A stretch of 64,000 nucleotides of DNA from a virus (taxonomy: Duplodnaviria > Heunggongvirae > Uroviricota > Caudoviricetes): the IMG/VR virus record IMGVR_UViG_2778261574_000002. One strand, 5' to 3'. The notes beneath the pieces were generated by a model, which saw only the letters and a list, made by a program, of their open reading frames with translations, was not told where the DNA came from and searched no databases. Below, piece by piece: positions 17,565 to 19,421 of this stretch. The first letter of the stretch is position 1. Each line of letters starts with the position of its first letter. A program made the position numbers and the translations under genes.

Positions 17565-18253
17565 GCTGCACCATCACCTTTCACTTTCATCAATGTCAGG
17601 TTTCCGCAAAATACGGCACCAGTGTCGATATACTGCTGATTCCAGAATGTCTTCGGGCTTTTCACCGGAGTGTGACCAAAGATAAAACGATCTGCGCCCG
17701 AAATTTCGCCACCAATATCATCCATCGAATCACTGATACGCTCGCGCGCCCAGACAACGTTGAAAAGCGGCACCTCCTTACCGAATTGGTATTCATTATC
17801 CGGATAGTCGGCATGGGCTATAACGATAGTTTCTTGCCCGGTGTTCAACTCAATGATATAGGGCAGACGCTTTACCAGCTCCACCAGCGCCCAGGCTAAT
17901 ATTTCCTGATCAGTGTCCAGCATGAAGAACCATTGTCCGCCATTCATTAGCCAGTTATTCACGTTGCCATCTGGACTTAACGCATCAATCATCAGCCGCT
18001 CATGGTTCCCCATCACTGCCCTGAACCAGGGCATCTGCAATAGTTCCAGACATTCGACATTTTCAGTACCGCGATCGATAAGGTCGCCGACCGATATCAG
18101 TAAATCCTGCGCCGGGTCAAAATCCACACGATGGAGTTCGGACATCAGTCTGGTGTAGCAACCATGCAGATCACCAACAACCCAGACATTCCTGTATTTG
18201 GTACCGTCGATACGGTGATAAATTGTGGGTGCCATCATGTATTCTTCAGCCAT
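17561..18253 (-). CDS. ppp: Ser/Thr protein phosphatase (calcineurin-like metallophosphoesterase)
   Basis: 230 aa; GDLHG, GDLIDRG and GNHE motifs. Confidence 0.75.
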
Positions 18254-18861
18254 TCTTTAAGAGTCATCTGCGGAATACCTCCCATTTTCCCGCATGAAAC
18301 AACGTCAATCTGTTCACGCGCAGACTGGAATAACAAAGGCAGGTGACTTAGATTTTTTGGCGTGCCGCCGGAGTGAACGCGTGGTTCTTGTGTAGCGTCA
18401 ACGCCCACCAGGGCGACATGTTTGAATCCGATATGGAAAGCCAGGTTCAGAGCGCCATATGCACTATTGCCGCTGGCAATTTCATTCTCATCTTCGCAAA
18501 GTCCGAAATGTGCGGACCAGCGCCACGCCCACCACTCGGGAGAATTCGTATTTTTTGGCTCCATGCCACGTTCAGCCACACGACGGAAGCACAGAACGCC
18601 GTCTCTGACTTCACGTTCTTTAACATCGGGTAGTGCCATGCAATAACAAACACCACGGCGACGGCGGCCACGACCAACGCGCCGCATATTGTCTGGCGAT
18701 GGATCAAGTGTGAAAAAATAAGAAGCGCGGTTCAGCCAGTCGATGGCCCCATTGACCGCTATAATCGGCACTCCGCGCGGCGCAACAAAGTTTGCGGCGC
18801 TTGGGCCACTGCCGACGATAATAACGCGATCACTGCCTCTAAATTTATTCTTGGGAAACAT
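18235..18861 (-). CDS. Rossmann-like protein with GSGPS motif (paralog A)
   Basis: 208 aa; [20 protein letters not shown]. Confidence 0.5.
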
Positions 18862-19421
18862 TGAATTGCACTGCTCCTACTTGCATTCAAAATATGTAAA
18901 TCTGCGTGTTTTTTGCGGGTATCCAGGAACTGCTGTTGCCATTTTGAAATAGACACCTGCGTTGGATTCCGTAGGGCTTGAGGGTGCGCGCCATGCCAAT
19001 GAAGGCCGTTTTGCAGAGAACAGTCATAGCCGACTAATACAACTACTTCAGCCCCTGATTCAGCAGCCAGACTGATAGCCTGCGCGCCGCTATTTACCCC
19101 TTCCGCCGGTCCACAATATCGCCTGTACTCCAACGAAAATGATTTCGCCGCCGCCAGGTTGGCTGTCACTTTGCGGAATTTCCCTCCCGGTATGGTGGAT
19201 CCGTATTGCTTCCACCATGACAAATCACCGGCGTATAAGGCATAAATGTCATCGAACATCTGCCAGGAATTGTTAACCGCGATGATTGAACAGCCAGTTT
19301 TTTCTATAGCAGCACAGTCCTCACGAGTGAGTGACGGACCGCTACCGACACAAAAAACAGTCCTAGTCGCCCTGGGTGGTATGTTCATTCTCAGCTGCAA
19401 ATTCAGCCTCCAGGCGAGCAT
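18759..19421 (-). CDS. Rossmann-like protein with GSGPS motif (paralog B)
   Basis: 220 aa; VFCVGSGPS..IIAVNN..VLVGYD; 3' end overlaps paralog A by ~100 nt. Confidence 0.5.
   Translation of the reverse strand: MLAWRLNLQLRMNIPPRATRTVFCVGSGPSLTREDCAAIEKTGCSIIAVNNSWQMFDDIYALYAGDLSWWKQYGSTIPGGKFRKVTANLAAAKSFSLEYRRYCGPAEGVNSGAQAISLAAESGAEVVVLVGYDCSLQNGLHWHGAHPQALRNPTQVSISKWQQQFLDTRKKHADLHILNASRSSAIQCFPRINLEAVIALLSSAVAQAPQTLLRRAECRL

Follow-up and report, generated by a model that had tools for sequence, protein, structure and literature searches.

Our analysis of a 64,000-nucleotide stretch of viral DNA (hereafter the window) indicates that pmgO and pmgP, two neighbouring genes of a phage P1-type genome, form a genuine same-strand, out-of-frame overlap of two separately translated genes within the C1-repressed operon pmgN-pmgO-pmgP-ppp-pmgQ, a reading to which we give a probability of about 85%. 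All features described here lie on the minus strand, with positions counted along the window. As annotated in P1, pmgO occupies 18759-19421 (220 amino acids; the coordinates include the stop codon position) and pmgP 18235-18861 (208 amino acids), so that 103 nt (18759-18861) are common to both open reading frames, with pmgP in the -1 frame relative to pmgO. The initial annotation of this DNA had described tandem GSGPS paralogs placed head to tail and overlapping by about 100 nt in another frame, and had left three explanations side by side: a real overlap, a mis-assigned start, or programmed frameshifting that yields a fusion. The description proved accurate (103 nt, the -1 frame, GSGPS in both proteins and a profile match between them at E 1.2e-11). 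The first explanation is supported, with a start codon fixed across 13 lineages and an overlap already annotated in P1 and P7; the other two are not.

The identity of the locus is clear. Nucleotide comparison assigned the window to a P1-type genome, and a 3.4-kb query around both open reading frames was 98-99.8% identical to P1, P7, RCS47 and SJ46 (98.2% to P1 and 99.8% to RCS47). The annotation tables of P1 match the window in the order pmgM-pmgN-pmgO-pmgP-ppp-pmgQ, which characterizes a Punavirus locus, and place pmgO at 79592-80254 and pmgP at 80152-80778 of the P1 genome. In P7 the same pair is named hdmB/hdmC, and the boundaries of the two frames and the 103-nt overlap are identical in P1 and P7. 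The overlap is therefore a known and annotated feature of P1, and the window is without material difference from the sequences of Escherichia phages P1 (GenBank AF234172) and P7 (AF503408). In those records the genes carry labels such as “putative morphogenetic function” or “head morphogenesis”, and their paralogy is not mentioned. A sequencing or assembly error was considered and rejected, since 79 of the 90 loci with both genes share one and the same junction sequence, and the same A6 run is found in all 83 P1-like loci checked.

Overlap is the rule in this operon. Every junction overlaps, by 59 nt (as annotated), 103, 19 and 4 nt in gene order. The first gene, pmgN (19363-19569), overlaps pmgO with its 3′ end by 59 nt if the annotated pmgO start is used and by 38 nt if a downstream TTG is used; ppp (17561-18253), a lambda-type Ser/Thr phosphatase (Pfam Metallophos, 9e-16), overlaps the 3′ end of pmgP by 19 nt; and pmgQ (16869-17564) is glycosyltransferase-like (PHROG 1962 “glycosyltransferase”, 4.9e-127). 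Scanning the minus strand for an internal promoter-like site for pmgP returned none, which argues for one transcription unit, and it is most likely that pmgO and pmgP are translated separately from one mRNA. The length of the overlap is by itself unremarkable, since the chance that an ATG inside pmgO is followed by 21 further stop-free codons is about 36% by simple arithmetic, (61/64)^21.

Further evidence comes from the position of the pmgP start in relatives. The comparison with homologs proposed in the initial annotation was made on diverged loci that have a PmgP-like gene after a PmgO-like one, and it covered 13 lineages with PmgO identity down to about 41%, drawn from P1-like plasmid-prophages (Salmonella, Klebsiella, Pantoea), metagenome contigs and lambdoid prophages such as that of Citrobacter rodentium. 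Scans of viral contigs were dominated by near-identical P1 copies, and the diversity came from genome contigs, exact-protein look-ups and a few viral loci. In all 13 lineages the pmgP ATG consists of the last base of one PmgO codon and the TG of the conserved Cys188 codon (xxA-TGY), and pmgP is always in the -1 frame, with overlaps of 40, 49, 70, 94, 100, 103 and 109 nt. A start position shared in this way is not a product of chance. With ATG and frame fixed across the 13 lineages, the deep overlap is a design that enterobacterial phages have inherited and kept stable, and it is by no means peculiar to P1. Outside this pattern, a Pseudomonas-type lineage (L114, L118) has an overlap of just 11 nt in the other frame, and in one phage (L102, protein P0051) pmgO and pmgP are fused in frame.

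The pmgP start also has the signals expected of an independently translated gene. The ribosome-binding site (18874-18879) comprises AGGAG at 18878-18874, 12 nt before the ATG, which is a long spacing, and it is overlapped by a TAG (18879-18877) that closes the pmgP frame 18 nt 5′ of the ATG at 18861. Between this stop and GSGPS, that ATG is the sole in-frame start, with no other ATG, GTG or TTG. In P1-like lineages the AGGAG is formed from the Ser-Arg codons of a conserved N-x-S-R motif of PmgO, and a GGAG-like element precedes the pmgP ATG in most of the 13 lineages. As is characteristic of true overlapping genes, pmgP comes with a start codon and a ribosome-binding site that belong to it and are kept across relatives.

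Large overlaps are often mispredictions, and this general experience is one reason to ask whether the pmgP start has been mis-assigned. The candidate is a GTG at codon 31 (18769-18771), from which the overlap would shrink to about 13 nt; it is the start used in the SJ46 RefSeq record (178 amino acids), protein P0054 has the same length, and automatic gene calls for PmgP, often similarly shortened, commonly give products of 172-186 amino acids. The initial annotation held that a downstream start removing the overlap would settle the matter against it. Such a codon exists, but its use would delete strand beta-1 and GSGPS, a segment that is invariant or nearly so in 27 homologs, is modelled at a pLDDT of 95-97, and corresponds to the nucleotide-binding N-terminus of the Maf/MptE/Cst-I fold. 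Moreover, the PHROG 2111 match of PmgP begins at residue 1, and it is the ATG, not a downstream start, that is kept in the 13 lineages. With the conserved segment lost, the GTG cannot be the functional start of pmgP, and we consider a mis-assigned start extremely unlikely. The value of the overlap lies mainly in annotation: pipelines that remove it, as in the SJ46 RefSeq record and several automatic calls, give truncated proteins that lack GSGPS. To a specialist the overlap itself is ordinary and will come as no surprise; it is for annotation that it is useful.

We then examined selection on the two frames through pairwise nucleotide differences by codon phase in nine lineages. Upstream of the pmgP ATG, the third positions of pmgO vary most (0.63, vs 0.43 and 0.24, the latter at position 2). 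Variation is low at every phase over the first 39 nt of the overlap (0.27/0.28/0.39, highest at pmgO position 3), while in the last 64 nt of the P1 overlap the maximum of 0.60 is at pmgP position 3 (which is pmgO position 2) vs 0.19 and 0.19, a pattern equal to that of the pmgP-only sequence further downstream. Some 39 nt after the overlap begins, the substitutions switch from the third positions of pmgO to those of pmgP. The uniformly low variability of the first ~39 nt may reflect purifying selection on both frames, and in the remaining ~64 nt the constraint is on the pmgP frame only.

This division agrees with the protein data. The first part (18823-18861) encodes PmgO residues 187-199, which are the end of the conserved domain and the C-terminal helix, over residues 1-13 of PmgP, a poorly conserved leader (pLDDT 58 for residues 1-10 in the AF2 model). 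Here C188, F189 and L194 of PmgO are nearly invariant. The remainder (18759-18822) encodes an unconstrained PmgO tail (residues 200-220 and the stop) over conserved PmgP residues 14-34. By PHROG 4603 and hhalign the PmgO domain ends at residues ~200-202, many PmgO homologs end directly after the L-E-x-x-L helix, the position of the pmgO stop varies among lineages, and residues 201-220 are modelled at a pLDDT of 71 and then 54, with the cores of both proteins confident. Since selection at the protein level has left no trace in the tail, true double coding is limited to about 13 codons, and the rest is a PmgO tail running to the first chance stop. The locus offers a clean example of a long overlap that has persisted with little constraint on both frames at once: where PmgO has its conserved end, PmgP has a disordered leader, and where PmgP has its conserved start, PmgO has a dispensable tail.

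An unconstrained tail is also what would be seen if the overlap were degenerate, that is, if pmgO were decaying and had lost its original stop by a frameshift or deletion, so that its extension into pmgP had no function. Variants of pmgO that are frameshifted or truncated do circulate, namely P0002 (174 amino acids, 48 member sequences) and L119, in which pmgO is split over two frames, and some phages have PmgP and PmgQ without PmgO. The gene is also non-essential: single deletions or CRISPRi knockdown of pmgO, pmgP, ppp or pmgQ in P1 caused no plating defect (PMC10695390, PMC9024508), so the function of pmgO and pmgP is dispensable in the laboratory. The body of pmgO, however, argues against decay. 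Upstream of the overlap it has the normal coding signature described above, with variation concentrated in third positions; 23 residues are invariant across 27 PmgO homologs; the fold model is confident; and the open reading frame is intact in all 83 P1-like loci checked. On balance, decay of pmgO is a highly improbable explanation.

The third explanation to be weighed is programmed -1 frameshifting at one of two heptamers, which would produce a PmgO-PmgP fusion of about 45 kDa beside the separate proteins. The geometry is suggestive: relative to pmgO, pmgP lies in the -1 frame, which is free of stops from a point 18 nt 5′ of the pmgP ATG. The inspection for slippery heptamers, also proposed at the outset, found two sequences of the X_XXY_YYZ type in the pmgO frame, T_TTC_CCA (18858-18852) and A_AAT_TTA (18846-18840). 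Both are in phase and fall inside the overlap, in a stretch where the -1 frame has no stop; the rest of pmgO contains no such heptamer. SD-like elements ~10-14 nt upstream stimulate -1 shifting in dnaX, and the AGGAG of pmgP is 15 nt 5′ of the first heptamer. T_TTC_CCN recurs in 6 of the 13 lineages, and the natural in-frame fusion P0051 implies that a covalent link between the two proteins is tolerated.

The heptamers are not conserved with the overlap, however, since five of the 13 lineages with the same arrangement have none at all, and A_AAT_TTA occurs, among the lineages compared, in P1 only. The recurrence of T_TTC_CCN is explained by the conserved Cys-Phe-Pro codons of PmgO, of which it is a by-product, and it disappears where Phe is encoded by TTT or Pro is replaced. 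Pseudoknot-free secondary-structure folding found no stimulatory RNA structure: the 166-nt region around the overlap has a minimum free energy of -44.9 kcal/mol vs a shuffle mean of -45.6 (z = 0.18), and 116 of 200 shuffled sequences were as stable or more so. Furthermore, a shift at either site would delete the conserved C-terminal helix of PmgO, which the natural fusion keeps. In E. coli, the A-site tetramers C_CCA and U_UUA reached only 1.8-3.6x background despite the presence of a pseudoknot, and heptamers of the X_XXC_CCA form ranked among the poorest, with A_AAC_CCA and G_GGC_CCA below threshold (PMC4066793); judged by these relatives, both P1 heptamers would be weak types in E. coli. 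Frameshifting as a programmed route to a fusion was thus not borne out, and we hold it to be very unlikely. A trace of frameshift product may be made in P1; nothing indicates a programmed event. Like the established -1 sites of dnaX, IS911/IS3 and the tail-chaperone G/GT genes, the locus has its second gene in the -1 frame, in-phase heptamers and an SD-like element upstream, but unlike them its heptamers are weak, unconserved and without stimulatory structure, and pmgP has its own conserved start.

The Shine-Dalgarno sequence and ATG of pmgP are both part of codons for conserved PmgO motifs: Ser-Arg of N-x-S-R supplies the AGGAG, and the xxA-TGY of the Cys codon supplies the ATG. Under the preferred reading of two separately translated genes, ribosomes on pmgO would pass the pmgP start, complete the last conserved PmgO helix in the ~39 nt that follow, and go on translating the non-conserved tail up to the first stop. 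Such an arrangement would keep the paralogs co-expressed, and the traffic of pmgO ribosomes may keep the pmgP start site open, a form of translational coupling. It resembles the long same-strand overlaps of compact phage operons in which an upstream gene has been extended over the next start: two frames are used, the Shine-Dalgarno sequence and ATG are internal, and a segment conserved in one frame faces one that is poorly conserved in the other. It differs from these in that the start has been held for long, across 13 lineages, and in that the partners are paralogs, of which at least one relative has an in-frame fusion.

The relationship between the two proteins is distant. A pairwise BLASTP comparison of PmgO with PmgP is weak (E 0.003, N-terminus only), whereas hhalign aligns them over their full length (probability 97.4%, E 1.2e-11, 162 columns, 23% identity), using a PmgO alignment from which the fusion protein P0051 was excluded; PmgP also matches the PHROG family of PmgO (E 2.3e-5). 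Profile comparison and structure models together identify PmgO and PmgP as distant paralogs with a Maf/MptE/GT42-sialyltransferase-like fold, and in the models both adopt this type of alpha/beta fold. Both have the N-terminal GxGPS nucleotide-binding motif after beta-1, as GSGPS, and it is conserved across both families. In PmgO the motif is at residues 26-30 (19332-19346), with G28, P29 and S30 invariant in 27 homologs. In PmgP it is at residues 17-21 (18799-18813), inside the overlap, with V16 and P20 invariant and I15 and G19 present in at least 90% of sequences.

Matches to named families are below threshold. Pfam PF01973 (DUF115/MptE-like) scores 23.6 bits with PmgO and 20.9 bits with PmgP, below the gathering threshold of 34.6 and over the C-terminal part of the profile only, and some homologs have a precomputed PF01973 match. 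The NCBIfam search gave sub-threshold WaaZ matches only: the WaaZ Kdo III transferase model TIGR04437 scores 11.9 bits with PmgP and 20.3 with the PmgP half of P0051, below the cut-off of 200 bits and limited to the N-terminal ~50 residues. A sequence search of PDB chains returned nothing useful for PmgP or PmgQ. The predicted fold is shared with Maf flagellin glycosyltransferases, GT42 sialyltransferases (Cst-I/Cst-II) and DUF115/MptE-like proteins (PF01973). The chemistry would accordingly be a sugar transfer of the Maf/GT42/WaaZ type; a pyrophosphokinase is a less likely alternative, kept in view as MptE and thiamin pyrophosphokinases, too, are neighbours in fold. The pointers to sialyl- or ulosonic-acid transfer are confined to the fold and to PHROG and RefSeq labels, and the MptE/TPK pyrophosphokinases are equally close in fold.

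Gene content around the pair suggests a partnership that includes pmgQ. A pmgQ-like gene co-occurs with pmgP in every locus examined, while ppp is an optional insert present only in some P1-like lineages and absent from loci L108, L103, L110, L111 and L102. A search of 1.8 billion representative proteins with P0051 as the query gave 2133 relatives, almost all single domains of ~180-220 amino acids. The rare natural fusions join PmgO to PmgP (P0051), two DUF115-like domains in tandem (P0247, P0249), or PmgP, or a PmgP-like domain, to PmgQ (P0189, P0277). In Pseudomonas and Ochrobactrum prophages the module comes directly after the major capsid gene, and in lambdoid prophages it has the lysis genes on one side and the terminase genes on the other. 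The rare fusions and the constant presence of pmgQ suggest that pmgO, pmgP and pmgQ make up a three-part glycosylation module. PmgO and PmgP, which are not themselves part of the virion, would probably act together with the PmgQ glycosyltransferase, possibly as a pseudo-heterodimer, in a glycosylation step for which virion proteins or LPS are the candidate targets. The literature on pmgO/pmgP, on DUF115 in phages and on virion glycosylation yielded essentiality screens and deletion strains but no study of what these genes do.

This side result has more potential than the overlap, as synteny and gene fusions tie the three genes into a sugar-transferase-like module and so offer a testable function for three “putative morphogenetic” genes of P1 that have been without one since 2004. 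What is new here is modest, and consists of the start fixed on a Cys codon, the unconstrained tail, the natural fusions and the pmgO/P/Q module. A bolder proposal, which we advance tentatively and regard as rather doubtful, is that the three proteins are an uncharacterised and widespread phage glycosylation machine. In it, a pseudo-heterodimer of Maf/GT42-like paralogs and a GT-A-type transferase, with the overlap or fusion fixing the ratio of subunits, would decorate virion proteins (e.g. the capsid) or alter the LPS, and the sugar used may be a CMP-activated ulosonic acid, for instance Kdo. If so, P1 and many Gram-negative prophages would be glycan-modifying phages. A trace frameshift fusion in P1 would be a minor variant of such a machine.

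Finally, the other end of pmgO may also need revision. The annotated ATG at 19421 is not conserved and residues 1-14 of the annotated PmgO are modelled at a pLDDT below 50. The probable true start lies at 19398-19411, where a GGAGG (19411-19407) is followed after a 6-nt spacer by a TTG (19400-19398), giving a protein of 213 amino acids. This GGAGG-N6-TTG arrangement is kept in loci L105, L107 and L108, and the homolog P0002 begins at the TTG position. The ATG given in the records thus probably precedes the true start of pmgO by 7 codons.

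In the pmgN-pmgO-pmgP-ppp-pmgQ operon (16869-19569, minus strand) each gene overlaps the next, by 59 or 38, 103, 19 and 4 nt at the four successive junctions, and we found no internal promoter-like site on the minus strand of this operon. The two values at the first junction reflect the choice of the pmgO start. The annotated ATG (19421, minus strand; span 19398-19421) lacks conservation, and P1-like relatives have kept a GGAGG followed, after 6 nt, by a TTG at 19400 (minus strand). The TTG is probably the real start of pmgO, giving a protein of 213 amino acids, and with this start the overlap with pmgN would be 38 nt instead of 59 nt. 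The first gene of the operon, pmgN (19363-19569, minus strand), was scored as essential in a CRISPRi screen but as non-essential in a deletion study, two results that disagree, and the operon genes downstream of it were all non-essential (PMC10695390).

The 103-nt overlap between the distant paralogs pmgO and pmgP has had consequences for their annotation. Automatic annotation has cut pmgP to 172-186 amino acids in phage SJ46 (NC_031129, 1436-2460) and in five other loci (L103, L106, L109, L110 and L111), and pmgO to 166 amino acids in the same SJ46 record, because the overlap is thereby avoided. Both truncations lose the GSGPS motif. L105 and L109 belong to a P1-like lineage of Salmonella type in which the stop codon of pmgO and an internal Met codon of pmgP (amino acid 23) together form an ATGA, and gene callers have chosen this 4-nt overlap as the start of pmgP. 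Some reinitiation might take place at this ATGA and yield a truncated PmgP. Names have been propagated as well: "norphogenetic protein", a misspelling from the P1 record, is now found in many NCBI and UniRef names of PmgP and PmgM homologs.

Frame-disrupted forms of pmgO were also found. One variant of PmgO (P0002, 174 amino acids, 48 member sequences) enters the pmgP frame at an AAAAAA run (18909-18914, pmgO coding strand) and ends at the TAG preceding the pmgP ATG; such a frame switch was present in 0 of the 83 P1-like loci checked, and the variant is either an allele with a frameshift or the product of a sequencing error that recurs. The PmgO-like gene of L119 (2966-3513) is broken across two frames, and this split gene is a pseudogene or a sequencing error; the pmgP start that overlaps it is undamaged.

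Outside the P1-like phages, prophages of Pseudomonas and Ochrobactrum (L114, 3433-5253; L118; L116, 4001-5213, with PmgP/PmgQ only) have the PmgO/PmgP/PmgQ module directly behind their genes for portal, ClpP protease and major capsid, a position that hints at a virion target. Many lambdoid prophages (L006-L021) carry a lone PmgO-like gene between the lysis and terminase genes, and in L012 (2968-5007) it is followed by unrelated ORFs of 287 and 214 amino acids in place of pmgP and pmgQ. The gene order in L115 and L125 is PmgP-like, methyltransferase, PmgQ-like and then PmgO-like; adjacency is therefore not obligatory for the PmgO/PmgP paralog pair. Finally, natural fusions join a PmgP-like domain to a PmgQ-like glycosyltransferase (P0189 and P0277), or two DUF115-like domains in tandem (P0247 and P0249).
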